Positions 2,633-17,874 of a stretch of 39,311 nt of DNA are shown one piece after another. Numbering within the stretch: position 1 is the first letter of the stretch; every line of letters begins with the position of its first letter. This DNA is from a virus: the UHGV virus genome UHGV-0361196; one strand, given 5' to 3'. Under the pieces are notes generated by a model. It made no database searches and was not told the DNA's origin. It worked only from the letters and a program-made list of their open reading frames with translations. A program made the position numbers and the translations under genes.

Positions 2633-2694
2633 TACGCGGACGTTCTGATGGGGGCTTCTGTTTCTTCATGCCTGTCATTTGTCTGTTACTTATA

Positions 2695-2870
2695 GAGAGG
2701 TAAATCATTTGATACTGCTGAAAAATCCGGGAGGAAAGTGGATCAAACGGGATTTGATGGGATAAAACAAACAGTTATGACGTAAAACAGTGTTATGCGC
2801 ACAACATGTGATTTGATACTACTGTCGCAAAGAAAGCTAAAAACGAAAAAATATTTGATACTACTGATTT
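2695..2870. repeat. left end (attL-like) with three putative transposase-binding repeats
   Basis: TTTGATAC at 2708..2715, 2812..2819 and 2854..2861 in the same orientation; L1 is about 100 bp from the adjacent L2/L3 pair, as in Mu attL; the reverse complement GTATCAAA recurs three times at the right end. Confidence 0.6.
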
Positions 2871-2895
2871 CTGCGATTTTAACGTTTTAAACAGG

Positions 2896-2932
2896 TTAAA
2901 AAACCAGCCGCGGGCTATTGGAATTAGCCCGC
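2896..2932 (-). terminator. candidate intrinsic terminator of repressor gene
   Basis: 8-bp stem GCGGGCTA / TAGCCCGC (2910..2917 / 2925..2932) with 7-nt loop; plus-strand A-run 2898..2903 gives a U-run after the hairpin on the minus strand; stem overlaps the stop codon. Confidence 0.4.
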
Positions 2933-3508
2933 CTTCGATTCTAAACTACTTGAGAGTTTATCGCTTTCAATTTCTGCCAAAATCTCTCTAACTCTTTCAT
3001 CCGATAAATGATCTAAAAGTAGAGCTGCTGCACGTTTTCGTCCTTCAAGTTGGATTAGTTCTTGATTCTCTGGTTCAAGTAACCGTGACAAGTACTTAGC
3101 TCCATTTAGCGCGAGGATTTTTGATAATCGCTCTGCCTCTGATGCTTCTAAAGCACTTAGTATAGCAAGAAGGCGCTGTAGCGTTATATCTAGGGGCAAT
3201 TGGACGTTTTCATCTATTTTAGGTGATATTGGTTCTATATCCTCCTTGCCAAAAACAAGCCAATCAATGCTCACCCCTTCTGCAAAAGCAATCTGACTAG
3301 CTACTTGTAGAGATGGTGTCGCATCTTTCTCAAAGTAGTTGTTAAGTGTTGAGAACGGTAGCCCCCACGCCTTCGCCACGGCAGTCTTGGAGCGCCCGCG
3401 CATTAGCATGGCTAGGCGCTCTTTAATGCTTTCTTTTTGAAACACAGGAAAAGAAAAATCACTTTCTTTTTCAGTGCTTCTTTCTTTTCTGTTAACCATA
3501 TGATTCAT
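2924..3508 (-). CDS. prophage repressor with XRE/lambda-cI-like HTH (Mu c functional equivalent)
   Basis: Only minus-strand gene in the prophage, divergent from ner as in Mu; HTH-like segment SKTAVAKAWGLPFSTLNNY followed by GVSIDWLVFG; start ambiguous (ATG 3508 or 3499 preferred over the GTG at 3559 that gives the 211-aa track ORF). Confidence 0.7.
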   Translation of the reverse strand: MNHMVNRKERSTEKESDFSFPVFQKESIKERLAMLMRGRSKTAVAKAWGLPFSTLNNYFEKDATPSLQVASQIAFAEGVSIDWLVFGKEDIEPISPKIDENVQLPLDITLQRLLAILSALEASEAERLSKILALNGAKYLSRLLEPENQELIQLEGRKRAAALLLDHLSDERVREILAEIESDKLSSSLESKAG

Positions 3509-3648
3509 AAAGAAATATCCTTTTGTAGATAAAAACCACCAAAGAAAGAGATAAAACACCTTTACTTTTCTTTTGTAGTGATCAAATATTTATCTGTAGA
3601 GATTATCCGGCGGTGTTATCCGCGCAGATAACTTTTAAGGATAAACGA
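3509..3648. promoter_or_regulatory. divergent early/repressor promoter-operator region
   Basis: Intergenic between divergent repressor and ner; repeated CTTTTGTAG-like motifs (about 3514..3530 and 3569..3585; variant TATCTGTAGAG about 3591..3601) and near-palindrome GTTATC-CGCGCA-GATAAC at 3615..3632; lies about 0.8-0.95 kb from the left end, where Mu has its operators and transposition enhancer. Confidence 0.5.
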
Positions 3649-3885
3649 ATGATGTCTATAAATGAAGTTGTTAAACAGGACTGGCACCCCGCGCATGTTG
3701 TCGCGGCGGTGCATGTAAAAGGTTTTACTTTACGCTCTCTGTCCATTGAAGCCGGTTTAAACCAGGATTCTTTAAAGAATGCCCTGTACCGCAAATGCCC
3801 AAAATATGAGCGCATTATTGCTGATGCTATTGGTGTTGCGCCGGAGGAGATCTGGCCCAGCCGTTACGCTCGTAAGGTGGCATAA
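3649..3885 (+). CDS. ner: Ner-like DNA-binding early regulator (Ner/Nlp family)
   Basis: C-terminal region ...ADAIGVAPEEIWPSRY resembles the Ner/Nlp family signature; RBS AGGA 9 nt upstream of ATG 3649; the track ORF from 3613 is probably a 5' over-extension. Confidence 0.8.
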   Translation: MMSINEVVKQDWHPAHVVAAVHVKGFTLRSLSIEAGLNQDSLKNALYRKCPKYERIIADAIGVAPEEIWPSRYARKVA

Positions 3886-3887
3886 AA

Positions 3888-5975
3888 ATGTTTGTATCAG
3901 TTAATGAGCTTGTAGGGTTACCAGGTATGCCGGGAACTGCGCAAGGGGTGCGGTATTCCATAAGGAAACTGGCCTCATCTGAGCATTTCAGGCGCAAACG
4001 TGCGGGTTCAAAAACCATTGAATACAGCATCGACTGCCTCCCTCCGGTTACACAACGGGCGTTACGTGAGCGACATGTAGCTCAACTGATGGCAAGCGCC
4101 CCGCGGGAGATAACTACCCAGCCTCCTGTAAAGCGTGAACGCAAACAAAATGTTGTACAGCCTGTTGAGGCATATCGCGGTTCGCCACAATTGGTAGAAG
4201 AGCGTCTGAATGCGCTTACGGAAAATCAACGTAAAGTTGCAGAAGCGCGCATTGCTCTTGTCTGTGAAGTTCTACGAATTAGCCAGGAGCCGGGATTCAG
4301 TTGTGCCAGCGCTATACGTTTTATTGTGTCGCGGTTAGCGCAGGGTAACCTGGAAGAACGCCTGGAATCTTTGGTCATTACTGCTAATGCCCGTAAAGGA
4401 AAAGAGCGAACTCTGAGCGCAATTACGCTCAAACGTTGGATAGCTGCGTTTAACAAAGCACAGAATGCCGCAGAACGACTGCTGTTACTGGCACCAGGAA
4501 AGCGCGACGAAATAAAACCGGAAGAAATTAGCTGGCTGCCTGAATTTCTGGCGCAGTATCGTCAGGCTAACGGCAGGCCTATGTCTGAAGCCTATGAGGA
4601 TTTTGTCGCTGATTGGCAGCGTCGCCATGCGGACGAACCATACATGCTGGAGGTGATGCCTTCCTATGATGTTGTCCGGTATGCCATGAAAAAACTGCCG
4701 GAAGTGGTGAAACAAAAAGGGCGCGTTACCGGCAGTGAATACCGTCAGCTTGAAGGATTCACCCGCCGCGACTGGACAGCTATGCCGGTGAATTATGTCT
4801 GGATTGGTGACGGTCACGGTATGAAGCTGAAATGTGCACATCCGATCCACGGGCGTCCATTCTCACCGGAAGTTACATTTGTGATCGACGGTGGAACCCG
4901 GTTTGTTGTTGGCTGGAGTCTTGACCTTGCCGAGAACGTGTTCGCCGTTGCCGGTGCGATACAGCACGGCATTCGCAACCACGGAAAACCGTTTCTGTAT
5001 TACTCGGATAATGGTTCTGGTGAAACGGCTGACATACTGGACAAAGAGGTCGTGGGTATTCTGCCCCGCCTGGGGATTAAACACCCTACCGGTATTGCCG
5101 GTAATCCACAGGGGCGCGGCATTATTGAACGCCTGAACCGGACACTGCCGATGCGTATAGCCAGGAGGTATCGCACCTATTTTGGCAAGGGTGCTGACCG
5201 GGAATCGTTGCGTGTACTTAACCGTGATCTGCGTTCAGCGTTTAACGCCATGCAACAGGACAAGCCTCTGAACGACCGCCAGAAAGCTGCAATGCGCGAG
5301 CTACCATCGTGGGCGGAGCTTATTGAGGCTATTCGTGAAGGCGTGGAATGGTACAACAACCGCCCGCATTCTGAGCTGCCAATGAAACCGAACGGGCGGC
5401 ATTACAGCCCGGCAGAGTTCAGAAAAAAACGCCTGGCAGAAGAAGACACCGAAATTGAGTGGCTGAGTGATCTTGAGCTGCGCGACATGTTCCGCCCGAT
5501 GGTGGAACGCCCGGTAAGACGGTGCGAAATTCAGTGGCTGAACAATATTTACTACGCGCCGGAGTTGCGTGACGAACACGGTCGCAAAGTACTTATCAGT
5601 TATGACATTCATGACGCCGAGCGAATTACGGTACGTCGCAAGGACGGCAGCTTTATCTGTGAGGCGATATGGAACGGCAATAAACGCACAGCCTTTGCTG
5701 TCAGTGCTGAATATCACAAACAACAGCAGCGTATTAAAGGAATGCGCAAACGTGCTGAGGAAAAAATTCGTGATGCTGAGGATGAAGGCATTCAGATACT
5801 GGAGCACAAACAGGCTGAACCCTGGCTGGATAATGTTTATCGCCCGGTTGGCAATACGGTAACCATCCAGCAACAGGATTATGAGGAGGATTACGACGAA
5901 GATTATGAACGCGATTTCAGGCTGGGTTTGCAGAAGCTTGTAGCCATACAGGAACAGGATGATCCGCTGGCCTGA
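3888..5975 (+). CDS. DDE transposase, MuA family (divergent from Mu A)
   Basis: 695 aa; N-terminal enhancer-binding-like domain (VNELVGLPGMPGT...KTIEY) and candidate DDE residues in IGDGHG, YYSDNGSG and GIIERLNRTL, aligned by eye to Mu A catalytic core; acidic C-terminus; RBS AAGGTGG. Confidence 0.9.
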   Translation: MFVSVNELVGLPGMPGTAQGVRYSIRKLASSEHFRRKRAGSKTIEYSIDCLPPVTQRALRERHVAQLMASAPREITTQPPVKRERKQNVVQPVEAYRGSPQLVEERLNALTENQRKVAEARIALVCEVLRISQEPGFSCASAIRFIVSRLAQGNLEERLESLVITANARKGKERTLSAITLKRWIAAFNKAQNAAERLLLLAPGKRDEIKPEEISWLPEFLAQYRQANGRPMSEAYEDFVADWQRRHADEPYMLEVMPSYDVVRYAMKKLPEVVKQKGRVTGSEYRQLEGFTRRDWTAMPVNYVWIGDGHGMKLKCAHPIHGRPFSPEVTFVIDGGTRFVVGWSLDLAENVFAVAGAIQHGIRNHGKPFLYYSDNGSGETADILDKEVVGILPRLGIKHPTGIAGNPQGRGIIERLNRTLPMRIARRYRTYFGKGADRESLRVLNRDLRSAFNAMQQDKPLNDRQKAAMRELPSWAELIEAIREGVEWYNNRPHSELPMKPNGRHYSPAEFRKKRLAEEDTEIEWLSDLELRDMFRPMVERPVRRCEIQWLNNIYYAPELRDEHGRKVLISYDIHDAERITVRRKDGSFICEAIWNGNKRTAFAVSAEYHKQQQRIKGMRKRAEEKIRDAEDEGIQILEHKQAEPWLDNVYRPVGNTVTIQQQDYEEDYDEDYERDFRLGLQKLVAIQEQDDPLA

Positions 5976-5982
5976 ATAAAAA

Positions 5983-6006
5983 AACAGTCCGCGGGAACGG
6001 ACTGTT
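5983..6006 (-). terminator. hairpin between A and B, terminator-like on the minus strand
   Basis: 9-bp stem AACAGTCCG / CGGACTGTT with 6-nt loop; a run of 7 A precedes it on the plus strand (U-run after the hairpin on the minus strand); no T-run after it on the plus strand. Confidence 0.35.
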
Positions 6007-6048
6007 AAACGAAGGAAACAAAGCTGATTTGAATAAACGGAGAATAAT

Positions 6049-6981
6049 ATGACCGATATTAATGATGTTTTCAACACGATTAACACACTTATTACTGACG
6101 GCGTAAAAACACAAAGCGCTATTGCTAAAGAAGCGGGGGTGTCGGAGGCCACTCTTTCTGAACTTCGCAAAGGCCGTTACAAAGGTGATACCGAAGGGAT
6201 GCATGACAAATTACTGATGTGGCATCAGAGCTGGCAAAAAAGTCTGGAGTTACCTGGCGCACCACAACTTGTGGAAACACAAACCCTCCGTGATTTGCGC
6301 GAGCTGTTTCAGACCGTGCGTGTTATGGGCTGTATCAGCGTTCTGGTTGGTGTGCCGGGTGTTGGTAAAACCGTTGCGGCCCGTGAATACAGTAACCGTG
6401 TATCTAATACCTGGATGGTGACCCTTTCCCCTGCACACTCAACAGTGACTGAGTGTCTGCTGGAGCTGGCAGACGCGCTGGGAATTGATAATCCGCAAAG
6501 AAATAAAGGCGCATTGACCCGCGCCATTCGCAAAAAACTGAATGGCACACGCGGTCTGGTTATTGTGGATGAAGCTGACCACCTGAGCATGGACGGGCTG
6601 GAGCAGTTACGCGCCATTCAGGATGCAACCGGCGTCGGGATGGTATTGATTGGCAACCCACACCAGTTAGCCAAAGCCACACACCGGGGAACAGATGACC
6701 TTGCACGTTTGTTCAGTCGTTTCGCCAGAACAAAGCAACTACGTAAAGCCAAAAAGGCTGACGTGGTGGCAATTGCGAAAGCCTGGGGCATTGAGGGCGA
6801 AGATGAATTATCACTCATGCAGAGCATCGCGGAAAAACCAGGTGCATTACGTGTATTAACTCATACGCTGAATCAGGCGTGGCTGGCTGCCAGCGGGAAA
6901 GGCGTTCCTCTATCCAAAGGCTACATTAAAGCAGCTTTTAAAGAGGTTTACAGCAACCCGAAATTACTGAACTGGTGGTAA
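6049..6981 (+). CDS. MuB-like AAA+ ATPase transposition target-capture protein
   Basis: 310 aa; Walker A GVPGVGKT and Walker B VIVDEADH; N-terminal HTH-like region; directly after transposase gene as in Mu; RBS GGAGA. Confidence 0.9.
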   Translation: MTDINDVFNTINTLITDGVKTQSAIAKEAGVSEATLSELRKGRYKGDTEGMHDKLLMWHQSWQKSLELPGAPQLVETQTLRDLRELFQTVRVMGCISVLVGVPGVGKTVAAREYSNRVSNTWMVTLSPAHSTVTECLLELADALGIDNPQRNKGALTRAIRKKLNGTRGLVIVDEADHLSMDGLEQLRAIQDATGVGMVLIGNPHQLAKATHRGTDDLARLFSRFARTKQLRKAKKADVVAIAKAWGIEGEDELSLMQSIAEKPGALRVLTHTLNQAWLAASGKGVPLSKGYIKAAFKEVYSNPKLLNWW

Positions 6982-6992
6982 GGGGATAAATA

Positions 6993-7220
6993 ATGATGTC
7001 ACGAAATATAAAAATGGCAACGGATGCGCAGAACTGGTTACAGGCGCGCGGGAGTCATGTAAATGAATCATATCTCGGCGTGGCGCGTCCGATTCTTGAA
7101 ATCACTTACCCACCGGTGGAACTGGTAAAAAACGCGGTCAGAATTATGGAGCATAAGTCCGGGGTGGCCCGTTCTGTATGGACGGCCCGTCTTAATGGTT
7201 GCCAGATTATCTGGAGATAA
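6993..7220 (+). CDS. hypothetical early protein (75 aa), positional equivalent of Mu kil
   Basis: First ORF after B; function not established from sequence. Confidence 0.5.
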
Positions 7221-7222
7221 CG

Positions 7223-7444
7223 ATGTGTATTAAAGCTGAAAAATATATTGAATGGGTTAAACACTGTCAGTGCCACGGGGTGCCGCTGACGACATATAAA
7301 TGCCCAGGATGCGGTGAACAGATTATGACGCAATGCTCACCCGAAAAGGAAATTCGGGATTCCCTGACATGTTGTCCGTGGTGCAGCGCAGTTTTCTTTA
7401 AGCAGGTAAAAGGCGCGAAGGTAAAAGCCAGCGCAGTTATTTAG
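7223..7444 (+). CDS. small zinc-ribbon protein (about 73 aa)
   Basis: Cys pairs CQCHG, CPGCG and CCPWC; RBS GGAGA about 10 nt upstream of ATG 7223; the track ORF from 7199 is an in-frame 5' extension. Confidence 0.5.
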   Translation: MCIKAEKYIEWVKHCQCHGVPLTTYKCPGCGEQIMTQCSPEKEIRDSLTCCPWCSAVFFKQVKGAKVKASAVI

Positions 7445-7464
7445 AATCAATAAGGAGAAGAAAA

Positions 7465-7734
7465 ATGGCAAAGGTTATCTTTGAGTTTACATGGCTGGAA
7501 AGTAGTGACAGTTGCAATGGGCGCAGAGAAGTTCTGGATGCAAAAGCATGTCTTGCAGATATCTCGCCAACGGAAAATACCGGGCCTCATGATTTACTGG
7601 CAAATATAGTCCTGACTATGGCTCCTGAAATTATTAAAAAGGCCAAAGATGAGATGCTGACCACTATGAAGAAAGTGGGTATGGAAGCTGAATGTGATTT
7701 AGTACCACGTCCGGTGAATGTGGTTAAACATTAA
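7465..7734 (+). CDS. hypothetical early protein (89 aa)
   Basis: Strong RBS AAGGAGAAG upstream of ATG; no motif recognised. Confidence 0.55.
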   Translation: MAKVIFEFTWLESSDSCNGRREVLDAKACLADISPTENTGPHDLLANIVLTMAPEIIKKAKDEMLTTMKKVGMEAECDLVPRPVNVVKH

Positions 7735-7754
7735 TTCGCAAAGGAACGCTGACA

Positions 7755-8174
7755 ATGAACGTCAAAATCCGAAATGAAATTCAGGCATTAATTCGAATTA
7801 AAATGCGTAATAACAATCCAGGAGAATTACGCGAGTTTATTTTCACCCGCAAAGTTTATGAGCATGGTGAAACTACTTATCTGATTACATTTGACCATTA
7901 CAGCATTTGTGCGCGTTATTGTGGCGAAAACATCTCTAATGCCATCACGTTTGGCGGTGCGTTTAACGAGGATTTATGGGAATACGTCATGGACCGCGAA
8001 TACATCTGCGCATCAGACCCTGAAGCCCGTGAAATGTGGCAGCGTATCTGGCGCGATTACCGGTTAATGGCAAAAGGCTGGGCGCGCTGCTGTTATTCCT
8101 CGCTTGCCCTGAAAGCGGTTCAGTTATCGCTGCGGCATATTCCGGCATCACTGCACGAGCCTCTGCTGTACTGA
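7755..8174 (+). CDS. hypothetical early protein (139 aa)
   Basis: RBS AAGGAA upstream of ATG; no motif recognised. Confidence 0.55.
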   Translation: MNVKIRNEIQALIRIKMRNNNPGELREFIFTRKVYEHGETTYLITFDHYSICARYCGENISNAITFGGAFNEDLWEYVMDREYICASDPEAREMWQRIWRDYRLMAKGWARCCYSSLALKAVQLSLRHIPASLHEPLLY

Positions 8175-8474
8175 ATGGTGACTGACATGAAGTGTAATCG
8201 TAAGCGCTGGTCACGCGAAGACCGGGAATTTATCGAAGCCAGCGTCGGGAAAATGACCATTGAAGAAATGGCGGAAAAACTGAACGTTGCCACAACCGCC
8301 CTCCGGGCACATGCCAGAAGGCACGGAATATCGTTGTGTGCATACCGGGTCAGTGAGCACGACAAATATTTGTGTCGTGAACTTTATAAAGAAGGACTGG
8401 ATATTCATGTCATTGCCCGAAAGATGGAATTAAGCAATCGAGCTGTATCCAGCATTGTATACAGCGGATATTAA
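8175..8474 (+). CDS. hypothetical early protein with HTH-like segments (99 aa)
   Basis: Two helix-turn-helix-like stretches (TIEEMAEKLNVATTALRAHARRHGI and LDIHVIARKMELSNRAVSSIV); start could instead be ATG 8187. Confidence 0.5.
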   Translation: MVTDMKCNRKRWSREDREFIEASVGKMTIEEMAEKLNVATTALRAHARRHGISLCAYRVSEHDKYLCRELYKEGLDIHVIARKMELSNRAVSSIVYSGY

Positions 8475-8493
8475 TTAACAGGAGCTTTAATTT

Positions 8494-9018
8494 ATGGCTA
8501 AACCAGCAAAACGTATCAAAAGTGCCGCAGCGGCTTATGTGCCACAAAACCGCGATGCGGTGATTACCGATATTAAACGCATCGGGGATTTACAGCGCGA
8601 AGCATCACGTCTGGAAACGGAAATGAATGATGCCATCGCGGAAATTACGGAGAAATTTGCAGCCCGGATTGCACCGATTAAAACCGATATTGAAACCCTT
8701 TCAAAAGGCGTTCAGGGATGGTGTGAAGCGAACCGCGACGAACTGACAAACGGCGGCAAAGTGAAGACGGCGAATCTTGTCACCGGTGATGTATCGTGGC
8801 GGGTCCGTCCACCCTCAGTAAGTATTCGTGGTATGGATGCAGTGATGGAAACGCTGGAGCGTCTTGGCCTGCAACGCTTTATTCGCACGAAGCAGGAAAT
8901 CAACAAGGAAGCGATTTTACTGGAACCGAAAGCGGTCGCAGGTGTTGCCGGAATTACTGTTAAATCGGGAATTGAAGATTTTTCCATTATTCCGTTTGAA
9001 CAGGAAGCCGGTATTTAA
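8494..9018 (+). CDS. gam: Gam, host-nuclease inhibitor (DNA end-binding)
   Basis: 174-aa product matches my recollection of phage Mu Gam nearly residue for residue; RBS AGGAG. Confidence 0.9.
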   Translation: MAKPAKRIKSAAAAYVPQNRDAVITDIKRIGDLQREASRLETEMNDAIAEITEKFAARIAPIKTDIETLSKGVQGWCEANRDELTNGGKVKTANLVTGDVSWRVRPPSVSIRGMDAVMETLERLGLQRFIRTKQEINKEAILLEPKAVAGVAGITVKSGIEDFSIIPFEQEAGI

Positions 9019-9115
9019 TACCACCATTAATATTTAATTAATTCACATTCGTTTAATTATGGCGCGATGCGTCAGGGGACTACTCGCGCCTTAATCAGAA
9101 CCGGAGAGAATGAAA

Positions 9116-9664
9116 ATGAAAGCATGTGCTTATTTTAAACTGAGTGACGAAGCCGCTAACGGTTATACGATTCGCTGGCTAAAAGAGGTTTCTGTTAAGC
9201 GTGGTGAGATTATTGAGTCATTACAGCAATCAGTGAAAGCAATCGGTGTGTCTTTGTCTGGTGACAAAGGGCCTGAGAGGGTTACGCATGTCTGGTTTAG
9301 CTACTTACCACCGGAAGGATGGGGGATTAAATCAAGGACACTTTTCATTGGTGATATTCAGTTATGGGGCGCAATGCCGGATATGACAATACCGGCAGGT
9401 CGTGAGTACGGGAAGCTCATCCGGGACTGTGAAAATCAGCTCGAAAAACACCCGGATTTTCAGCGCTGGCTGTGCAATGAACTTAACGTGGCTACCGACG
9501 TTGACCTGTTTGACATCAGGTCCGTGTGGAAAATGCACCACAGCCGTGACGGATTCAGCATTTTGTTTGCAGTGTACCTTCTGGCTGGCGAAGTGAAGGG
9601 ACCGGTTCCCGCCGAATGCCAGCGCATTAAACATTCTGAATTTGTGGCGCTGACGGAGGAATAA
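9116..9664 (+). CDS. hypothetical early protein (about 182 aa)
   Basis: RBS GGAGAG 9 nt upstream of ATG 9116 (track start 9110 is 2 codons upstream); no motif recognised. Confidence 0.55.
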   Translation: MKACAYFKLSDEAANGYTIRWLKEVSVKRGEIIESLQQSVKAIGVSLSGDKGPERVTHVWFSYLPPEGWGIKSRTLFIGDIQLWGAMPDMTIPAGREYGKLIRDCENQLEKHPDFQRWLCNELNVATDVDLFDIRSVWKMHHSRDGFSILFAVYLLAGEVKGPVPAECQRIKHSEFVALTEE

Positions 9665-9667
9665 CCG

Positions 9668-10207
9668 GTGATTGATGCAAAAGTTCTGAATGGTGTCAGC
9701 ACATTATTACGGGCTTACGGGCGTCTGACCTGCGGGGTTCTGGCTGAAAAAATGAAGATGCTGCCCTCGTCAATGGTTTATTTCCTGCGTGATGCGGTTG
9801 ATGCAGGTGTGCTCACCGAATGCAACGGATTTTATGACGTTCCGCGCCCGCGTCCGACGCTGCCTGTAAGACGAAACGCAACTGAGCAGCCTGCTGTTGA
9901 TGATGCGGTGTGGTGCAACTGGCGTCGCTCATTACCCTGGGTGGAAGGTAATACCATCCCCGCTCTGGCAAAAGAGTTTGCAACGGGCGTGCTGACCTGT
10001 GAATCCGTTCACATCGTTGCAGAAGTGGATAACAGGATGTGCGAACAGGGAATGCCCCGTTTTGTGATGGCTTATATCGATATCCGGCTGGGGCGGTTTA
10101 TTTGCAGTTCAAGCGCCTGGAATATCACCGACCATGTACTGCGTTATCTCATCATTGATTTTTCATCAGCACCGGGTGTGGTGCAGGAGGCTGGTTGTGA
10201 AATTTGA
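9668..10207 (+). CDS. hypothetical early protein (179 aa), possible winged-helix N-terminus
   Basis: GTG start with GGAGG upstream; N-terminal helix-rich segment. Confidence 0.5.
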   Translation: MIDAKVLNGVSTLLRAYGRLTCGVLAEKMKMLPSSMVYFLRDAVDAGVLTECNGFYDVPRPRPTLPVRRNATEQPAVDDAVWCNWRRSLPWVEGNTIPALAKEFATGVLTCESVHIVAEVDNRMCEQGMPRFVMAYIDIRLGRFICSSSAWNITDHVLRYLIIDFSSAPGVVQEAGCEI

Positions 10208-10892
10208 AGACTGGGGTATTGATAAAAGTTGTGGCCGGGACGTCCTGGTGTACAAAAACTGTAGCGTGATTGAAGGAGAAGATGCCTGGCAGGTTCTGGA
10301 TATACTTCGTTCTGCTTTATGCAGAGCTGGCTATGTTACGCCAGCGTCAGTTAATGGCGGAACTGCCACTACCTGTATCAGAAATCAACTTTATAGTTTT
10401 TATACAGCCTACAACCGATGGTTAAAGAATGGGGCAATGGAGACGGGCGATGATGTATTTACCCGGGCTGCCGGATTATGTGCCAATGCTTACGATTATT
10501 TTGAATCAATCGGAGCAGACAGCGAGGCTGCGCTAGAACAATTACATGCGGATTTTGTCGCGAGTGGGCTGGATGAATCCCTGCCATTTAATGTAGATAA
10601 CGTGCACTACCATGATGAATGCCTACATGACAGATGCCACCTGAATTCAGCACGTGTGGCATGGGTTGAAAAACACTGTATTAGTTCTGATTCAGAAATA
10701 ACGGGGAAAAAGACAGTCGGTGAAAATTCGTATTCGTGGCTGGGGAAATTTACCACGGTGAAACAGGAATGCCCGACCTGCGGTAATGAAAACCCTGAAT
10801 ATCTGAAAGAGTGCCCTCATTGTGGCGGGCAGAAATGCAACCACTGCGATATGGGCGATGACACAGCGTGCATGAATTGTGAAGGTGAGTGA
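10197..10892 (+). CDS. Cys-rich protein with C-terminal tandem zinc-ribbon motifs (about 231 aa)
   Basis: Four CxxC motifs in the last 40 aa (CPTCG, CPHCG, CNHCD, CMNCE) plus a His/Cys cluster HYHDECLHDRCH; GTG 10197 preceded by GGAGG at 7 nt is preferred over the overlapping ATG at 10134. Confidence 0.5.
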   Translation: MKFEDWGIDKSCGRDVLVYKNCSVIEGEDAWQVLDILRSALCRAGYVTPASVNGGTATTCIRNQLYSFYTAYNRWLKNGAMETGDDVFTRAAGLCANAYDYFESIGADSEAALEQLHADFVASGLDESLPFNVDNVHYHDECLHDRCHLNSARVAWVEKHCISSDSEITGKKTVGENSYSWLGKFTTVKQECPTCGNENPEYLKECPHCGGQKCNHCDMGDDTACMNCEGE

Positions 10893-10893
10893 T

Positions 10894-11202
10894 ATGAATA
10901 ATGGTGTATTTTCAAAATCAGAAGAGCTTGCCGCCCTGCTGATTGCCGGTGGTTTGCCGAAAAAAGAAGTGCATGACTTTGTGAATTTTGTATATAACCC
11001 GTCTCATGAAAAAGCTATTGATGAGGTCATGGCGTACCGGTTTGGCATTATTGCTGAGTCACTGAGTCCTCACTGGATTATTGAAAATCTCCGCACTATT
11101 GCTGATGGCAAAGATAAATCAGCAGCCGTTGCTGCATTGGATGTGTTACGGCAAATGAGTCTGAAATTTTATCCTGAATTTATTCTGAGGGCCGCAAAAT
11201 GA
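10894..11202 (+). CDS. hypothetical early protein (102 aa)
   Basis: ATG 10894 with AGGTGA upstream, directly after the stop of the upstream gene. Confidence 0.5.
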   Translation: MNNGVFSKSEELAALLIAGGLPKKEVHDFVNFVYNPSHEKAIDEVMAYRFGIIAESLSPHWIIENLRTIADGKDKSAAVAALDVLRQMSLKFYPEFILRAAK

Positions 11203-11501
11203 ACAATGAAGATAAATTTACTCCCCTTAATATTGATAACGTCATGGCTGAAAAAAGGATGCTGGAACGTGTTCGCGCTATCGTTGAATATGGTATTAAG
11301 CATGAACTCACCGCCAGAGAAGTCCGTGACATTATCAACCGCGAAATGAATCGTCTGGAAACAGTAGTGGCACTGCAAAATGAAACAGCCCGCGAGGAGT
11401 ACATCCGCCGCAGGCTGGGGTTATCAGACCAGGATATTGTTACTGACGCTCATGTGTTTGAGGCTTTTGAGATCCGTCAGCATCTGGGCCTTACGAACTG
11501 A
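11199..11501 (+). CDS. hypothetical early protein (100 aa)
   Basis: ATGA start/stop overlap with upstream gene; charged helical product. Confidence 0.5.
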   Translation: MNNEDKFTPLNIDNVMAEKRMLERVRAIVEYGIKHELTAREVRDIINREMNRLETVVALQNETAREEYIRRRLGLSDQDIVTDAHVFEAFEIRQHLGLTN

Positions 11502-11552
11502 TGTGTAAATTCAGGCGGTGTTGCAGCACCGCCTCTTTCCGGAGGTACGATC

Positions 11553-12104
11553 ATGAGCCGCACATCCCTGATTAAATTAATCCATGTCGCCCGTCGGGAG
11601 CTACAACTCGACGACGACACTTACCGCGCCTTTCTGATGCAGAAAACGGGCAAAACCAGTTGCCGCGAGCTGACGGTAACGCAACTGGAACAGGTGCTCG
11701 ATGCCATGAAAGAACGCGGCTTTAAGAAGCTGATTAAACATCCACGTCGCCGCTTTAAGGGGTATGTCACGCCCCGCGAGAAGGTGTATAAAATCTGGCA
11801 GCAGATGGCAGAAGACGGTTTTATTACCGATGGCGGTGATGTGGCGCTGGACAGATATGTTCAACGCCTGACCACGAAACGTAATGGCGGACAGGGTGTT
11901 TCCACGCTGGCGTGGTGTCATGGCGACACCCTGTTGATTGTTCTCGAAACTCTCAAGCAGTGGCATATCCGCTGTATTCGTGAAGCCTTTTCCCGTCACG
12001 GGCTTCCGTTGCCGGTCAGTCCGTCCGGGCGTGAACTGCGCGGCTATGATGCCATGACGGCGGCTTATGCCCATGCCAGAAAGACACGGAGGATGGCACA
12101 ATGA
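11553..12104 (+). CDS. gemA: GemA-like early protein (Mu gp16 family)
   Basis: 183 aa beginning MSRTSLIKLIHVARRELQLDDDTYRAF, which I recognise as the Mu GemA family; sits immediately upstream of mor as in Mu; RBS GGAGG. Confidence 0.75.
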   Translation: MSRTSLIKLIHVARRELQLDDDTYRAFLMQKTGKTSCRELTVTQLEQVLDAMKERGFKKLIKHPRRRFKGYVTPREKVYKIWQQMAEDGFITDGGDVALDRYVQRLTTKRNGGQGVSTLAWCHGDTLLIVLETLKQWHIRCIREAFSRHGLPLPVSPSGRELRGYDAMTAAYAHARKTRRMAQ

Positions 12105-12490
12105 CGGAAGATTTATTTGGTGATTTGCAGGATGACACCATCCTGGCACATCTTGACAATCCCGCAGAGGATGCGTCACGCTTTCCGGCACTGCTGGCGG
12201 AGCTGAACGATTTACTGCGCGGGGAGTTGTCCCGGCTGGGTGTTGATCCTGCCCATTCACTGGAGATTGTTGTGGCTATCTGTAAGCATCTGGGTGGCGG
12301 TCAGGTCTACATTCCACGCGGTCAGGTTCTGGACTCGCTGATTCGGGATTTGCGTATCTGGAATGATTTTAACGGTCGCAACGTCAGCGAACTGACCACC
12401 CGTTATGGTGTCACTTTCAATACGGTTTACAAGGCCATTCGCCGGATGCGACGGCTGAAATACCGCCAGTACCAGCCCTCACTTCTGTAA
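12101..12490 (+). CDS. mor: Mor, middle-operon transcription activator
   Basis: 129 aa, Mor/C family with C-terminal HTH (...NGRNVSELTTRYGVTFNTVYKAIRR); near-identical to Mu Mor as recalled; paralogous to C at 13283..13705. Confidence 0.9.
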   Translation: MTEDLFGDLQDDTILAHLDNPAEDASRFPALLAELNDLLRGELSRLGVDPAHSLEIVVAICKHLGGGQVYIPRGQVLDSLIRDLRIWNDFNGRNVSELTTRYGVTFNTVYKAIRRMRRLKYRQYQPSLL

Positions 12491-12495
12491 ACAGT

Positions 12496-12520
12496 AAAGC
12501 CGGTTAATCCGGCTTTTTTT
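12496..12520 (+). terminator. intrinsic terminator after mor
   Basis: 8-bp stem AAAGCCGG / CCGGCTTT with loop TTAAT, followed by a run of 7 T. Confidence 0.7.
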
Positions 12521-12567
12521 ACGTCCTCAATATCCTGTGATGAATAACCGTACCGGGGGAAATCATC

Positions 12568-12786
12568 ATGGGTAAAGGCTGGAATGCATCCTTTCATCTT
12601 GGCAGACGTGAGCGGCTGCGTCAGGAGGTTTTGCACCGTGTCGCCGGTGGGCCACGGCCTGCGCCCCGCGACTATACCGGTCATGATGGCACCCACGGCA
12701 GTTATTACATGAAAGGCTGGCAGTCAGTTGATATGCCGGAAATTCTTCATCATTGCCTGCTTTACAGGGAGAAACATTATGTCTGA
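12568..12786 (+). CDS. hypothetical protein (72 aa)
   Basis: ORF with GGGGGA upstream; His/Arg-rich; weak call. Confidence 0.4.
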   Translation: MGKGWNASFHLGRRERLRQEVLHRVAGGPRPAPRDYTGHDGTHGSYYMKGWQSVDMPEILHHCLLYREKHYV

Positions 12787-13141
12787 GCGTTCTGCTCGTC
12801 AGTGGCCTGATTTTTTATCGGTGGTATTACTGGCGCTGTTATTGTGGATAAGTCTGTTTTGTGGCTGGCGCGCGCTGATGTTTTGCTGTGCCTCGGTTTT
12901 CAGTGTTGCTTTATGTGTTGCCGCTGATTGTCTGGATGCGCTGATAATGAGCTGCCGGGTGCCTGAACATTTTGCCCGGTTCGTCTGGCCTCTGACCTGG
13001 CTGGGGAGTCTGTCCGGGCTGGGATTAGCCGTGATGGCAACGTCTCAACTGAAAACGGGTCCTGAGCATGTCATCTGGGCGCTGGCCGGATTGCTGACGT
13101 TCTGGCTCTCCTTTCGTTTTCGCGCTCGTCTGTTCGGGTAA
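12779..13141 (+). CDS. multi-pass membrane protein, holin candidate (about 120 aa)
   Basis: ATG 12779 preceded by GGGAGA; three to four hydrophobic segments; lies between mor and C, where Mu carries a small membrane protein. Confidence 0.5.
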   Translation: MSERSARQWPDFLSVVLLALLLWISLFCGWRALMFCCASVFSVALCVAADCLDALIMSCRVPEHFARFVWPLTWLGSLSGLGLAVMATSQLKTGPEHVIWALAGLLTFWLSFRFRARLFG

Positions 13142-13150
13142 AGGGGCACC

Positions 13151-13270
13151 ATGTACAGAAAATTCAGTGATGAATGTTTCGGGCCGTCCACGCTGATGAG
13201 TGCGATAAAAGTGATTGCCCTTGTGGTTCTGATAACCATCAGTGCCGTGGTGTATCTTTCTGTCTGTTAA
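13151..13270 (+). CDS. small single-pass membrane peptide (39 aa), not in ORF track
   Basis: ATG 13151 preceded by AAGGGG at 7 nt; translation MYRKFSDECFGPSTLMSAIKVIALVVLITISAVVYLSVC has one TM helix; fills the gap between flanking genes. Confidence 0.4.
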   Translation: MYRKFSDECFGPSTLMSAIKVIALVVLITISAVVYLSVC

Positions 13271-13282
13271 CCGGGGGAAAAT

Positions 13283-13705
13283 ATGCAGCATGATTTATTT
13301 GAACACGATCCGGCAATTCGCCAGTTAATCGGACATATTGATAACATCCCGGCCCCGGAACTGGAATCACGCTGGCCCCGTTCGGTGGTTGATCTGATTG
13401 ATGTTCTGGAAAACGAACTGAAACGCCAGAACGTCAGCAATCCCCGTGAGCTTGCCCGTAAACAGGCCGTTGCCCTGTCCTGTTTTCTGGGCGGACGGCA
13501 GTTTTACATCCCCTGCGGCGATACGATCCTGACCGCGTTACGTGACGATTTGCTTTACTGCCAGTTTAATGGTCGTAACATGGAAGAACTGCGTCGCCAG
13601 TACCGCCTGTCCCAGCCGCAGATCTACCAGATTATTGCCCGCCAGAGAAAGCTGCATACACGACGTCATCAGCCTGATCTGTTCTCACCTGAAAGCCCAA
13701 AATAA
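13283..13705 (+). CDS. C: C, late-gene transcription activator (Mor/C family)
   Basis: 140 aa, paralogous to Mor (...NGRNMEELRRQYRLSQPQIYQIIARQRK); near-identical to Mu C as recalled; RBS GGGGGA. Confidence 0.9.
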   Translation: MQHDLFEHDPAIRQLIGHIDNIPAPELESRWPRSVVDLIDVLENELKRQNVSNPRELARKQAVALSCFLGGRQFYIPCGDTILTALRDDLLYCQFNGRNMEELRRQYRLSQPQIYQIIARQRKLHTRRHQPDLFSPESPK

Positions 13706-13727
13706 CCGGCATCCTGCCGGTTATTTC
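13702..13727 (+). terminator. candidate terminator/attenuator after C
   Basis: Perfect 10-bp stem ATAACCGGCA / TGCCGGTTAT with 3-nt loop, followed by TTATTTCC. Confidence 0.45.
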
Positions 13728-13796
13728 CTGTCACCATAATCCCGCACCTGCCATCTGATTTTTTAGACTGCCATCAGCGCATTTTTTCAGGGAAGC

Positions 13797-14315
13797 ATGA
13801 TGGCGGGGATACCAAAAAAACTGAAAGCCGCACTGCTGGCGGCAACGATTGCCGGTGGCGGTGTGGGTGGTTATCAGGAAATGACCCGTCAGTCTCTGAT
13901 CCATCTGGAAAATATCGCTTATATGCCTTACCGCGATATTGCCGGTGTGCTTACGGTCTGTGTGGGACATACCGGGCCGGATATCGAAATGCGCCGTTAC
14001 AGCCATGCGGAGTGTATGGCTCTTCTCGACAGTGATTTAAAACCGGTTTATGCGGCAATCGATCGTCTTGTCAGGGTGCCGCTGACGCCATATCAGAAAA
14101 CGGCGCTGGCAACGTTTATTTTCAACACCGGTGTTACCGCATTCAGTAAATCAACGCTGCTGAAAAAACTCAATGCCGGTGATTACGCCGGAGCGCGTGA
14201 CCAGATGGCCCGCTGGGTGTTTGCCGCAGGCCATAAATGGAAAGGACTGATGAACCGTCGCGAAGTGGAAATGGCAATCTGGAATATCAGGGGGGCGGAT
14301 GACCTTCGCCAGTAA
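13797..14315 (+). CDS. lys: SAR endolysin (T4-lysozyme-like muramidase with N-terminal signal-anchor-release segment)
   Basis: N-terminal Gly/Ala-rich weakly hydrophobic segment LKAALLAATIAGGGVGG; catalytic pattern E-x8-D-x5-T in ENIAYMPYRDIAGVLT; matches Mu endolysin as recalled. Confidence 0.9.
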   Translation: MMAGIPKKLKAALLAATIAGGGVGGYQEMTRQSLIHLENIAYMPYRDIAGVLTVCVGHTGPDIEMRRYSHAECMALLDSDLKPVYAAIDRLVRVPLTPYQKTALATFIFNTGVTAFSKSTLLKKLNAGDYAGARDQMARWVFAAGHKWKGLMNRREVEMAIWNIRGADDLRQ

Positions 14316-14685
14316 AAGTTTACTTCTGGCAGCCGTGTTTGCCGCCGTTCTGTCCGGGGTGTTGTGGCACAGGCTGGACAGCACCCGCCACGATAACCAG
14401 ACGCTGCGCCGTAAATTACAGACGGAGCAACAGGCCCGCCACACTGCTGAATGGTTGTTACACAGTCAGGAACAGACGATGCAGGTATTTTCCGCTATCC
14501 GTGCCGCAAATCGTGCCGCGCGGCTGGAAGATGAGACAGAACATCATGATGCCAAACAAAAAATTACAACCGCTATTACCGGTGACAATTGCAGCACTCG
14601 TCCTGTGCCTGCCGTTGCTGCTGACAGGTTGCGGGAACTCGAAAAACGCACCCGTGCCATCGGTGGTGATCCTTCCCGAAACTGA
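14299..14685 (+). CDS. i-spanin (Rz-like)
   Basis: N-terminal TM helix SLLLAAVFAAVLSGVLW followed by charged helical periplasmic domain; overlaps the endolysin 3' end. Confidence 0.65.
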   Translation: MTFASKSLLLAAVFAAVLSGVLWHRLDSTRHDNQTLRRKLQTEQQARHTAEWLLHSQEQTMQVFSAIRAANRAARLEDETEHHDAKQKITTAITGDNCSTRPVPAVAADRLRELEKRTRAIGGDPSRN

Positions 14686-14887
14686 TGCAGAACTGACGGA
14701 AGCAACGCCCGTTCCGCCCATGCCACAGCCCCTGACGTGGGGAGCATCCCTTCTCTGGAATGCTGACCTGCTGATGGCGCTCGGGCAGTGCAACCGCGAC
14801 AAGGCATCAGTCCGGGAACAGGAGACCCGGAGGAAAGAAATTTATGAACGAAGACCAGAACCGGGCGGTGGCGCTGCTGCTCGCTGA
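14546..14887 (+). CDS. o-spanin (Rz1-like outer-membrane lipoprotein), overlapping the i-spanin in another frame
   Basis: Lipoprotein signal MMPNKKLQPLLPVTIAALVLCLPLLLTGC with lipobox LLTGC; Pro-rich mature part; begins inside the i-spanin gene and extends beyond it. Confidence 0.6.
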   Translation: MMPNKKLQPLLPVTIAALVLCLPLLLTGCGNSKNAPVPSVVILPETDAELTEATPVPPMPQPLTWGASLLWNADLLMALGQCNRDKASVREQETRRKEIYERRPEPGGGAAAR

Positions 14888-15038
14888 ACTCTGGCAGGGG
14901 AATACCCGTGATATTCCCCGTCCGGCGGCGTATGACCCGCCTGTATTGTGTGCCGGTTGCGGTCGTGAGCTGCGGCCTGATGTGCTGAGACAGCAGCCAA
15001 TGGCGAACTACTGCCACTGGTGCCGTGGAGCAGAATAA
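14844..15038 (+). CDS. small Cys-rich protein (64 aa)
   Basis: Strong RBS GGAGGAAAG; Cys pairs CAGCG and CHWC. Confidence 0.5.
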   Translation: MNEDQNRAVALLLAELWQGNTRDIPRPAAYDPPVLCAGCGRELRPDVLRQQPMANYCHWCRGAE

Positions 15039-15337
15039 TGGATTTGATTTCAGTTTTAGCGTTATGGCCTTACCTGTTGCCTGTTGTGGCCGGTGGGGCC
15101 GTCTGGGCGATGCGTCGTAGTTTTGCCAGCACCGAGCGTGTGGAGCGTCTTGAAAACCGGATGACCGAAATGGAAACCCGCTACGCCAGCATCCCTGGCA
15201 CAGAAGATGTACACGAAATGCGCCTGCGTATTGCAGAGCTGTCCGGCGATATCCGGGTGCTGTCCCAGCGGGTGCAGTCATTTTCCCATCAACTGGAGCT
15301 GCTGCTTGAAAACGCAGTAAACCGGAGTAATTCATGA
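15038..15337 (+). CDS. membrane-anchored coiled-coil protein, candidate lysis accessory (Mu gp25 releasin-like position)
   Basis: ATG 15038 after GGAGCAG; N-terminal TM helix LISVLALWPYLLPVVAGGAVWA then helical charged region; last gene of the lysis cluster. Confidence 0.5.
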   Translation: MDLISVLALWPYLLPVVAGGAVWAMRRSFASTERVERLENRMTEMETRYASIPGTEDVHEMRLRIAELSGDIRVLSQRVQSFSHQLELLLENAVNRSNS

Positions 15338-15624
15338 TTAACGATATTCTGACCGAAGACCGTCGTCTGGTCATCCTGCGTTCCCTGATGGACTGCAATA
15401 ACGAAGCCAACGAATCCATCCTTCAGGACTGTCTGGATGCATACGGACACAACGTTTCCCGCGATGTGGTTCGCGGCCAGATTGACTGGCTGGCAGAGCA
15501 GCAACTGGTCACCGTGGAAAACCTGCGCGGCTTTTATGTCGTAACGCTGACCTCCCGAGGTCAGGATGTGGCGGAAGGCCGCGCCCGCGTTGCCGGTGTC
15601 AAGCGTCCGCGTCCCCGTGCATGA
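15334..15624 (+). CDS. conserved Mu-like phage protein (96 aa), upstream of terminase genes
   Basis: ATGA overlap with upstream gene. Confidence 0.6.
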   Translation: MINDILTEDRRLVILRSLMDCNNEANESILQDCLDAYGHNVSRDVVRGQIDWLAEQQLVTVENLRGFYVVTLTSRGQDVAEGRARVAGVKRPRPRA

Positions 15625-15635
15625 CAGGAGGCGTG

Positions 15636-16211
15636 ATGGACAGGAAAACACGGGGCCGGGCTTCAAAAGTGGATTTACTGCCGGAAAACGTACGTAAAAC
15701 GCTGCATGAAATGCTGCGTGATAAGGCGATCCCACAGGCCCGCATTCTGGAAGAAATTAACGCACTGATTGAAGACGCTGGCCTGCCGGATGAGATGAAA
15801 CTCTCCCGTTCCGGTCTGAACCGTTACGCGACGAACGTCGAGCAGGTAGGCCATAACCTGCGACAGATGCGTGAAATGACGTCAGCACTGACCGCAGAAC
15901 TTGGCGACAAGCCAATGGGAGAAACCACAAAGCTGATTCTGGAAATGGCCCGCAGCCAGCTTTTTAAGGCCATGATGCGGCAAATCGAAAACCCGGAATC
16001 TGACGTGGATATTGACCTGCTGAAAAATGCCATGCTGGCGGCACAGCGTCTGGAATCCACGGCAATGTCCAGCCACCGGCGCGAGAAAGAAATCCGCCAG
16101 GCATTCGCAGAAGAAGCGGCAAACGCCGTCAGTGAAGAACTGCGCGGGCAGGATGGCATCAGCGAAGAGCTGGAGCAGCGTATCCGTGATGTGCTGCTGG
16201 GTAAGGCATGA
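15636..16211 (+). CDS. terminase small-subunit-like protein (Mu gp27 family)
   Basis: ATG 15636 preceded by AGGAGG; charged helical product directly upstream of the large terminase. Confidence 0.7.
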   Translation: MDRKTRGRASKVDLLPENVRKTLHEMLRDKAIPQARILEEINALIEDAGLPDEMKLSRSGLNRYATNVEQVGHNLRQMREMTSALTAELGDKPMGETTKLILEMARSQLFKAMMRQIENPESDVDIDLLKNAMLAAQRLESTAMSSHRREKEIRQAFAEEAANAVSEELRGQDGISEELEQRIRDVLLGKA

Positions 16212-16218
16212 GAGGGTT

Positions 16219-17874
16219 ATGAACACCAGAGAAAACAACCTTAAAGCCCTTCATGCCCCCCGAAAAATCAACCTGCGTGAGGAAGCCGAACTGCTCGGCG
16301 TGAATATCGTGACCGATATCGGGGAAGCACAGCCCCGCAATGAACCGGTTTTTCTGGGCTATCAGCGCTGCTGGTTTGAGGATGAAAGCCAGATTTGCAT
16401 CGCTGAAAAATCCCGTCGTACCGGTCTGACATGGGCCGAAGCGGGCCGCAATGTCATGACGGCAGCAAAGCCGCGCCGCCGTGGCGGTCGCAACGTCTTT
16501 TATGTGGGTTCCCGTCAGGAAATGGCGCTGGAATATATCGCCGCCTGTGCCCTGTTTGCCCGCGCCTTTAACCAACTGGCAAAGGCTGATGTCTGGGAGC
16601 AGACCTTCTGGGACAGCGACAAAAAAGAAGAAATCCTCACTTATATGATCCGTTTCCCTAACAGCGGATTTAAGGTGCAGGCGCTGTCAAGCCGTCCGTC
16701 TAACCTGCGTGGTTTGCAGGGGGACGTGGTGATTGATGAGGCGGCATTTCATGAAGCCCTGGACGAACTCCTGAAAGCGGCCTTTGCTCTCACCATGTGG
16801 GGTGCCCGCGTGCGGATCATATCGACACATAACGGCGTCGATAACCTGTTTAACCAGTACATTCAGGATGCGCGCGAGGGGCGCAAGGATTACAGCGTTC
16901 ACCGCATCACGCTGGATGATGCCATCGCTGACGGGTTGTACCGACGTATCTGTTACGTCACGAATCAGCCGTGGTCGCCGGAAGCGGAAAAAGCCTGGCG
17001 TGATGGCCTGTACCGGAATGCGCCGAATAAAGAGAGTGCCGACGAGGAATACGGCTGCATTCCTAAAAAATCCGGGGGCGCTTATCTGTCACGCGTGCTG
17101 ATTGAAGCCGCCATGACGCCAGTGCGGGATATCCCGATTCTGCGTTTTGAAGCCCCGGACGATTTTGAATCGCTGACACCACAAATGCGCCACGGCATCG
17201 TTCAGGACTGGTGTGAACAGGAGCTGCTCCCGTTGCTCGATGCGCTGTCGCCGCTCAATAAACACGTACTGGGCGAAGACTTTGCACGCCGTGGCGACCT
17301 GACGGTGTTTGTGCCGCTTGCCATCACTCCTGACTTACGCAAACGCGAATGTTTCCGCGTGGAGCTGCGTAATGTGACCTATGACCAGCAGCGACAAATC
17401 CTTTTATTCATTCTGTCCCGTTTGCCCCGTTTTACCGGCGCTGCATTTGATGCCACCGGTAACGGCGGTTATCTGGCAGAAGCCGCCCGTCTGATTTATG
17501 GCCCGGAGATGATCGACTGTGTGAATCTGACCGCATCCTGGTATCAGGAGTGGATGCCCAAACTGAAAGGCGAGTTTGAAGCGCAGAACATCACGATTGC
17601 CCGGCACCAGACCACACTTGATGACCTGCTCCACATCAAGGTGGACAAAGGTATTCCGCAGATTGATAAGGGGCGCACAAAAGACGAAGGCGGTAAAGGC
17701 CGACGACATGGCGACTTTGCCGTGGCGCTCTGTATGGCTGTCAGGGCGTCTTATATGAATGGTTTTGTTATCGACGAGGACAGCATACAGGCGCTGCCAC
17801 CACGCCACCGTGGTGATGGTGTTGATAACGATGATTTTGATGATTATCACCAGTTTGAACGAGGGGGCTGGTAA
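16219..17874 (+). CDS. terminase large subunit
   Basis: About 551 aa from ATG 16219 (GAGGG upstream); ATPase and nuclease-like acidic motifs (VVIDEAAFHE, DFAVALCMA); the track ORF from 16027 is a 5' over-extension overlapping the upstream gene. Confidence 0.9.
   Translation: MNTRENNLKALHAPRKINLREEAELLGVNIVTDIGEAQPRNEPVFLGYQRCWFEDESQICIAEKSRRTGLTWAEAGRNVMTAAKPRRRGGRNVFYVGSRQEMALEYIAACALFARAFNQLAKADVWEQTFWDSDKKEEILTYMIRFPNSGFKVQALSSRPSNLRGLQGDVVIDEAAFHEALDELLKAAFALTMWGARVRIISTHNGVDNLFNQYIQDAREGRKDYSVHRITLDDAIADGLYRRICYVTNQPWSPEAEKAWRDGLYRNAPNKESADEEYGCIPKKSGGAYLSRVLIEAAMTPVRDIPILRFEAPDDFESLTPQMRHGIVQDWCEQELLPLLDALSPLNKHVLGEDFARRGDLTVFVPLAITPDLRKRECFRVELRNVTYDQQRQILLFILSRLPRFTGAAFDATGNGGYLAEAARLIYGPEMIDCVNLTASWYQEWMPKLKGEFEAQNITIARHQTTLDDLLHIKVDKGIPQIDKGRTKDEGGKGRRHGDFAVALCMAVRASYMNGFVIDEDSIQALPPRHRGDGVDNDDFDDYHQFERGGW

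Follow-up and report, generated by a model that had tools for sequence, protein, structure and literature searches.

A Mu-like prophage with a foreign transposition module, TA...TA termini and 4-bp target duplications

The stretch of viral DNA analysed here (39,311 nucleotides, referred to as the window) contains a prophage flanked by plasmid DNA on both sides. The prophage is very probably an intact mosaic, composed of the body of phage Mu and of a foreign transposition/immunity module with a foreign right end (attR), and its junctions point to cleavage at TA and to joining with a target stagger of 4 bp. As judged from the sequence, the element extends from 2691 to 39271, has 5'-TA...TA-3' termini and is bordered by a 4-bp duplication, TACT.

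Boundaries of the prophage

The flanks of the element, namely window 1-2690, which carries genes for a DUF3560 protein and a methyltransferase, and the 40 bases at the far end (39272-39311), belong to the leading region of F-type plasmids. The left flank is matched by more than 3,000 E. coli replicons, the best matches ending at window position 2693 with 99.7% identity (BLAST). Only one position differs in this match, T2691 of the window, where the plasmid has g; the two bases that follow agree by chance. In thousands of plasmids the right flank, from 39272 onward, follows directly on the left flank. The uninterrupted site of plasmid NZ_CP023827 reads ...tgtctgtTACTgatgttg... and contains a single TACT, while the window has one TACT on each side of the element. 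In plasmid p4_4.1 the uninterrupted site reads ...gtctgttactgatgttg... (in longer views, ...catttgtctgttactgatgttgttgttcctgctactgct... and ...catgcctgtcatttgtctgttactgatgttgttgttcctgctactgct...). The junctions in the window, with the boundary marked by a slash, are ...gtctgttact/TATAGAGAGG... on the left and ...GCGCGCTTTA/tactgatgttg... on the right. Because identity with the empty site extends up to 2690 and begins again at 39272, the boundaries between host and element are located there and TACT alone is duplicated. The prophage is complete, with a length of 36,581 bp and the termini 5'-TATAGAGAGG...GCGCGCTTTA-3'. The features of the boundaries are as follows.

2687..2690, no strand: target-site duplication TACT, left copy, host plasmid DNA (empty site against window)
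2691..39271, + strand: complete transposable prophage (limits of plasmid identity; the same boundaries in nine other insertions and two phage records)
2691..2700, + strand: left terminus TATAGAGAGG (junction alignment)
39262..39271, + strand: right terminus GCGCGCTTTA-3' (the same in every copy, that of the sister type with different binding sites included)
39272..39275, no strand: target-site duplication TACT, right copy, host plasmid DNA (empty site against window)

The first-pass annotation of the window had noted that the termini lack an obvious 5'-TG...CA-3' and that the plus strand is devoid of CA between 39253 and 39311. Both observations were confirmed, and no TG...CA pair bounds the element. 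The same annotation had named an empty site as the evidence that could overturn its own placement of the ends, by revealing TG/CA termini and a different 5-bp duplication. The comparison does move both boundaries, but restores neither the TG/CA termini nor a 5-bp duplication.

A cryptic TG/CA pair further out and a right end outside the window were considered as well and were ruled out, the plasmid sequence being back at 39272.

Insertions at other sites

Of 5,426 complete E. coli genomes, 12 contain the left 410 nt of the element, and the right end was located in these same genomes. Both junctions were read in nine genomes with this element and in one copy of a sister type, described below, the junctions of which were taken from STEC346; one further right junction was read in strain A21. 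Ten copies, that of the window included, have a perfect 4-bp direct repeat abutting 5'-TAT.../...TTTA-3', and the repeat is different in each: TACT (window), TTAA, GTGA, AGCC, GATA, CGAA, GGCA, TGTT, TAAG and ATTC. The nine other insertions, all in E. coli chromosomes, are located in ydcV/patD, ydcO, glpT, rlmB, sslE, mscM and others. As these ten insertions are from closely related elements, they represent independent transposition events and not independent lineages. Insertion at many unrelated sites with a short target duplication (ten insertions in different genes) is a property shared with Mu-like elements. The left end always starts with TAT, in the form TATAGAGAGG, TATGAAGAGG, TATGGAGAGG or, in the sister type, TATGACTAGG, and the right end is always GCGCGCTTTA. 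Three IMG/VR contigs provide three more right junctions, all of which diverge directly after CTTTA.

The canonical signature of TG...CA termini and a 5-bp duplication is thus replaced by 5'-TA...TA-3' in all copies and by 4 bp in 10 of 10 insertions, three of which are confirmed by empty sites. In the K-12 empty sites of mscM and rlmB the flanks overlap by exactly 4 bp. The base preceding the left repeat is identical to the terminal A of the element in one of the ten copies, and the base following the right repeat is identical to the terminal T in three. Such matches of a fifth base occur only at chance frequency, and a reading with 5 bp is excluded. As a control, the same analysis was applied to genuine Mu in E. 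coli W and yielded ...tttacgccgc/TGTATTGATTC...GCCGCTTCA/gccgcatccgg, that is, TG...CA ends and a 5-bp duplication of GCCGC (cgccgc/TGTATTG...CGCTTCA/gccgc).

Several features of these copies deserve mention in their own right. The canonical Mu left end is present in 44 of the 5,426 complete E. coli genomes, against 12 for the TA-type left end. Positions 4-5 of the left terminus (window 2694-2696) vary as AG, GA or GG among copies that are otherwise nearly identical, with TAT and GCGCGCTTTA remaining invariant. The copy in FDAARGOS_1059 has no repeat and is flanked by an ABC transporter permease on one side and an SDR oxidoreductase on the other, a pattern that fits a later rearrangement. In strain 12A, matches to the two prophage ends are about 400 kb apart on opposite strands. 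The patterns in these two strains suggest phage-mediated rearrangements or recombination between copies.

Gene content and mosaic structure

The following genes and regions were assigned within the prophage.

2924..3559, - strand: repressor c-like gene, HTH_3 / Phage_CI_repr (open reading frame, Pfam and RefSeq annotation of an identical prophage; unrelated to Mu c in DNA)
3613..3885, + strand: ner-like gene, HTH_35 (open reading frame, Pfam)
3888..5975, + strand: transposase A, 695 aa, DDE triad D308/D374/E415 (Mu-transpos_C, HTH_Tnp_Mu_1; 24% identical to MuA)
6049..6981, + strand: B protein, 310 aa, AAA+ target activator, Phage-MuB_C (44% identical to MuB)
6988..39174, + strand: Mu backbone, kil region to mom (DNA about 97% identical to Mu 4307-36598)
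38453..39190, + strand: mom, the last prophage gene (open reading frame, annotation)

A DDE transposase A and an AAA+ B protein are encoded downstream of c and ner at the left end, and the structural, lysis and mom genes are homologous to those of Mu, both as in Mu-like phages. Region 6988-39174 is also about 97% identical in DNA to D108 and SfMu. No such DNA similarity to Mu was found in the left 4.3 kb (attL-c-ner-A-B, 2691-6987) or in the last 97 bp. Compared with MuA, transposase A is 24% identical in the catalytic region and 37% identical in its first 63 residues, and its D308, D374 and E415 align with D269, D336 and E392 of MuA. In the Pfam search it matched Mu-transpos_C, HTH_Tnp_Mu_1 and, weakly, rve, and the Mu-specific DDE_2 and HTH_Tnp_Mu_2 were not matched; B matched Phage-MuB_C and AAA_22, and Ner matched HTH_35.

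The breakpoints of the mosaic lie directly after the stop codon of B and within the last codons of mom. Their positions imply that the transposition/immunity module and both att ends were exchanged as a set, and as the two foreign segments are 32 kb apart, the exchange needs two crossovers. The element is accordingly best described as Mu carrying a heterologous transposition/immunity cassette with matching ends. There is a known precedent in D108, a Mu in which part of the early region has been exchanged.

The tail-fibre region, 34964-38453, is unlike that of Mu. It contains one tail-fibre assembly gene and an 854-aa S-like protein, for which the annotation in an identical prophage of strain S6 is pyocin-knob-domain protein. 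Within 34964-38453 no gin/hin invertase was found, and the inverted assembly gene is left as a fragment only. The invertible G segment appears to have been lost in this copy. Phage vB_YpM_5 and the WS1933D prophage keep the invertase.

Structure of the ends

A scan of the window for the motif TTTGATAC gave 9 matches against 1.1 expected, and three of them are clustered at each end, starting at 2708, 2812 and 2854 on the + strand (left) and at 39254, 39232 and 39197 on the - strand (right). Multiple inverted transposase-binding repeats at both ends, here three TTTGATAC cores each on opposite strands, are likewise a Mu-like arrangement. The parts of the two ends are the following, with offsets measured from the respective terminus.

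2708..2715, + strand: core TTTGATAC of transposase-binding repeat L1 (motif scan; offset 18 from the left terminus)
2727..2763, + strand: spacer between L1 and L2 (CCGGGAGG...GATGGGAT; CCGGGAGGAAAGTGGATCAAACGGGATTTGATGGGAT), conserved with Mu nt 31-67 (global alignment)
2812..2819, + strand: core TTTGATAC of repeat L2 (motif scan; offset 122)
2854..2861, + strand: core TTTGATAC of repeat L3 (motif scan; offset 164)
39175..39271, - strand: foreign right end (attR), the last 97 bp, carrying the R1-R3 cores
39190-39197, - strand: core of R3 (offset 75)
39225-39232, - strand: core of R2 (offset 40)
39247-39254, - strand: core of R1 (offset 18)

L1 and R1 are symmetric, both being at offset 18 when measured from 2691 and 39271, and the two termini align as a 25-nt imperfect inverted repeat, TAWAGMGMGSWAAATCATTTGATAC. 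The spacer at 2727-2763 is the sole stretch of the left end that resembles Mu. In Mu, the pac site and an HU site lie in the region that matches it, and the spacer is a candidate for a pac and/or HU site serving the Mu-type packaging genes. The same spacer is also conserved in the sister type and in Yersinia phage Tongde, despite the differing transposase sites that flank it.

Related phages and the transposase lineage

Two related phages, vB_YpM_5 and vB_YpM_6, were isolated as infectious Mu-like phages on Yersinia pestis (PMC10434027). Their identity to the window is 99.7% at the left end and 96-97.5% elsewhere in the genome. In transposition module (transposase identity 97%) and termini they agree with the element in the window; they differ from it in that the invertase and the G segment are retained. 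The publication (PMC10434027) says nothing on their ends or duplications. In the circularised records of the two phages, unrelated spacers of 79 nt and 128 nt are found exactly between ...GCGCGCTTTA and TATGAAGAGG. These spacers are probably packaged variable host DNA, as would be expected from the assembly of Mu-type ends, which would place the ends of the virion DNA at the same bases as the prophage ends.

The nearest other phage transposases are those of VW-6B (49%), Kp4852-3 (41%) and D3112-like phages (about 31%). Klebsiella phage Kp4852-3 and VW-6B belong to the same transposase lineage as the element in the window, and the Kp4852-3 record has canonical TG...CA ends, 5'-TGTGGGGAGGT...GCTCTACA-3'. 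The first 11 nt of Kp4852-3 (TGTGGGGAGGT) align position by position with TATGGAGAGGT and its variants here. Similarly, TATAGAGAGG aligns base for base with the left end of Kp4852-3, TGTGGGGAGG, position 2 being A here and G in Kp4852-3. According to this alignment the TA of the element corresponds to TG with a change of G to A at position 2. The Klebsiella paper (PMC8617712) is without information on the ends or the insertion site of Kp4852-3. Pseudomonas phage VW-6B was rejected as a comparator for the ends, since the record of this phage begins 54 nt upstream of the repressor gene, with the att ends missing.

The sister type occurs in E. coli and Shigella. Its transposase is 98-100% identical over residues 202-651 and 44-54% identical over residues 1-201. 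The inner repeats of this type are different (TCAAGATAA), and it has the same termini (TATGA.../...TTTTGCGCGCTTTA) and the 4-bp repeat. A search of genome contigs with the transposase gave two loci, both of the sister type, with only the left ends within reach. Across these two types the inner repeats vary with the N-terminal DNA-binding region, and the terminal bases and the length of the duplication go with the catalytic core. This correlation suggests that the catalytic core may set the terminal sequence and the stagger.

Yersinia phage Tongde is another member of this group of Mu-like Yersinia phages. Its record (MT591577, 36900-37700) is linear, and the left end abuts DNA resembling an insertion-sequence (IS) element. 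Two readings of the junction, ...CTGCTTAT/TGAGAAGGAGTTTATTTGATACC, are possible: a TAT... end with the L1 offset found here, or a TG end four bases inward; the left end is possibly TTAT/TGAGAAGG.

Proposed cleavage and joining

The preferred pathway is deduced from the sequences of integrated copies, which is where the cleavage position and the stagger come from. The DDE transposase of the foreign lineage would recognise three TTTGATAC-type sites at each end (L1-L3 and R1-R3). It would then nick after the terminal A of ...TA-3' on each strand, in place of the ...CA-3' at which Mu is nicked, by analogy with Mu (PMC3562280). Both 3'-OH ends would be joined to phosphates of the target that are 4 nt apart. 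Filling of the gaps by repair or replication would then create the 4-bp duplication, in this case TACT. TA-3' ends in a Mu-type transposase go against the conserved CA that is expected (PMC3562280).

Four other explanations were weighed against this pathway. The one that fares best, itself unlikely, accepts the boundaries but supposes that they do not report the chemistry: the stagger or the cleavage point would be another, and the outermost T and A would be regenerated or trimmed during repair or flap removal. Sequence gives no direct measure of the positions of strand transfer, and the repair of infecting Mu DNA does involve flap removal. Gap filling, however, copies target bases, and a constant non-target base at every site cannot arise in this way. 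Furthermore, when the ends are aligned with the TG...CA ends of Kp4852-3, the outermost T and A fall on the T and A of that phage, which indicates that they are the first and last base of the element itself.

It is very unlikely that the prophage is an immobile fossil, the odd ends of which are products of decay and not functional termini. The invertible G segment and the invertase are indeed missing in this copy. On the other hand, unrelated strains have this conserved type of terminus at many different positions in their chromosomes, and phages isolated on Yersinia pestis that share the module and the ends are infectious (PMC10434027). The reading frames of A and B are intact, as is the DDE triad. 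Perfect 4-bp repeats indicate, moreover, that the insertions are recent events.

A canonical element with a 5-bp stagger and canonical ends, of which one duplication base or the terminal dinucleotide was mutated or misassembled in the window, has hardly any probability. The left TACT is preceded by T and the element ends with A, so that a single substitution could mimic a 4-bp repeat. The same A on the right and the same T on the left are, however, found in 10 of 10 independent assemblies, in the two phage records and in the three IMG/VR contigs, three empty sites overlap by exactly 4 bp, and the same pipeline recovers 5 bp for true Mu.

The reading of the first-pass annotation, in which TTATA is a 5-bp Mu-type target duplication and the termini are 5'-GAGAGG (2695) and GCGCGCT-3' (39268), can be dismissed with near certainty: TTATA does stand at both junctions (2690-2694 and 39269-39273, as had been reported) and Mu itself makes 5-bp duplications (E. 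coli W control; PMC3562280), but TTATA is absent from the empty site of p4_4.1, which shifts both boundaries; the parental sequence predicted, ...gttac TTATA ctgatg... (form ...gttacTTATActgatg...), does not exist; the model fails in eight of ten independent insertions, its 5-mers matching coincidentally in the other two; and L1 and R1 become asymmetric, with offsets of 14 and 15. A shared 5-mer is also expected by chance in such zones (P about 0.7), at least one being present in 70% of mononucleotide shuffles of the two 31-nt junction zones. That TTATA is the only shared 5-mer depends on the choice of the zones, since zones of 51 nt share ATACT, CTGCT, TACTG and TTATA.

With the boundaries at 2691 and 39271, the left TTATA consists of one host base (T2690) and the first four bases of the element (TATA), and the right TTATA of the last three bases of the element (TTA) and two host bases (TA). 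The two coincide because the target duplication here happens to be TACT, and the repeat is evidently a coincidence. The second alternative that had been offered, in which TATA is inside the imperfect inverted repeat and the ends are misplaced by a few bases, turned out to be right.

Comparison with other transposable phages

Mu has TG...CA ends and a 5-bp duplication (PMC3562280), and a terminal CA together with a 5-bp stagger counts as a hallmark common to Mu and HIV integration (PMC3562280). The element in the window shares with Mu and D108 the order c-ner-A-B and the use of many insertion sites with a short duplication. As in Mu, L1 is followed by a gap and then by L2 and L3, and R1-R3 are close together. 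It differs from Mu in its termini (TA...TA against TG...CA), in the length of the duplication (4 bp against 5 bp) and in its transposase, which is only 24% identical.

Phages of the B3 type have a 6-bp duplication and TG-CA ends (PMC8705779), in place of which 4 bp and TA-TA are found here. According to a 2021 study of Leptospira, conserved TG-CA was common to every Mu- or B3-like phage that had been described by that time (PMC8705779). That study described TA-TA prophages with 6-bp repeats in Leptospira, found no obvious deviation of their transposase from a standard DDE enzyme, and left as a question whether such prophages exist in other bacteria (PMC8705779). These prophages (e.g. WETA1; PMC8705779) resemble the element in the window in being transposable and in having TA at both termini. 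They differ from it in having 6-bp duplications, B3/Tn552-type transposases and spirochaete hosts, whereas the element here is flanked by 4-bp repeats, is enterobacterial and has a Mu backbone. Hankyphage-like transposable phages of Porphyromonas and Bacteroides are reported to be bounded by 4-bp repeats (PMC10367356); by this published description they share the repeat length with the element, the hosts and phage families being unrelated. Within the literature searched, TA-TA ends in transposable prophages are reported only from Leptospira, and no report of TA ends or 4-bp duplications in enterobacterial Mu-like phages was found in a search that was incomplete.

The enterobacterial Mu chimera with TA ends and 4-bp duplications thus appears to be new, and the question raised in the Leptospira study (PMC8705779) is answered in the affirmative, TA-TA prophages being present in E. 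coli and Yersinia on a Mu backbone. The length of the duplication, 4 bp, differs from that of Mu (5), B3 (6) and the Leptospira type (6). By a slight balance of probability, the element is the first TA-TA transposable phage from outside Leptospira and has the first Mu/B3-type (Mu-transpos_C) transposase known to make 4-bp duplications; with its backbone about 97% identical to that of Mu, it would also be a natural experiment of a near-isogenic kind. If so, this experiment bears on the determinants of terminal-dinucleotide specificity and target stagger in the Mu/retroviral-integrase superfamily. For transposition biology the interest lies in a transposase that departs from both hallmarks of Mu while the backbone is that of Mu. 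Since the transposition module is essentially all that separates the element from Mu, and infectious isolates have been obtained, the system is a tractable one in which to ask what in the transposase and in the DNA ends sets the cleavage dinucleotide and the target stagger. On the practical side, boundary finders and annotators that assume TG...CA and 5 bp will misplace the ends of such elements.

Plasmid setting

The junction between plasmid and prophage was not found in the plasmid collection or in the complete E. coli genomes. Carriage by a conjugative F-type plasmid means that a transposable phage could spread by conjugation. The insertion lies between the methyltransferase gene (1965-2528) and ssb, inside small hypothetical open reading frames, and is adjoined by a short tandem repeat of the CTGCTA type (39290 onward), which is longer in p4_4.1.
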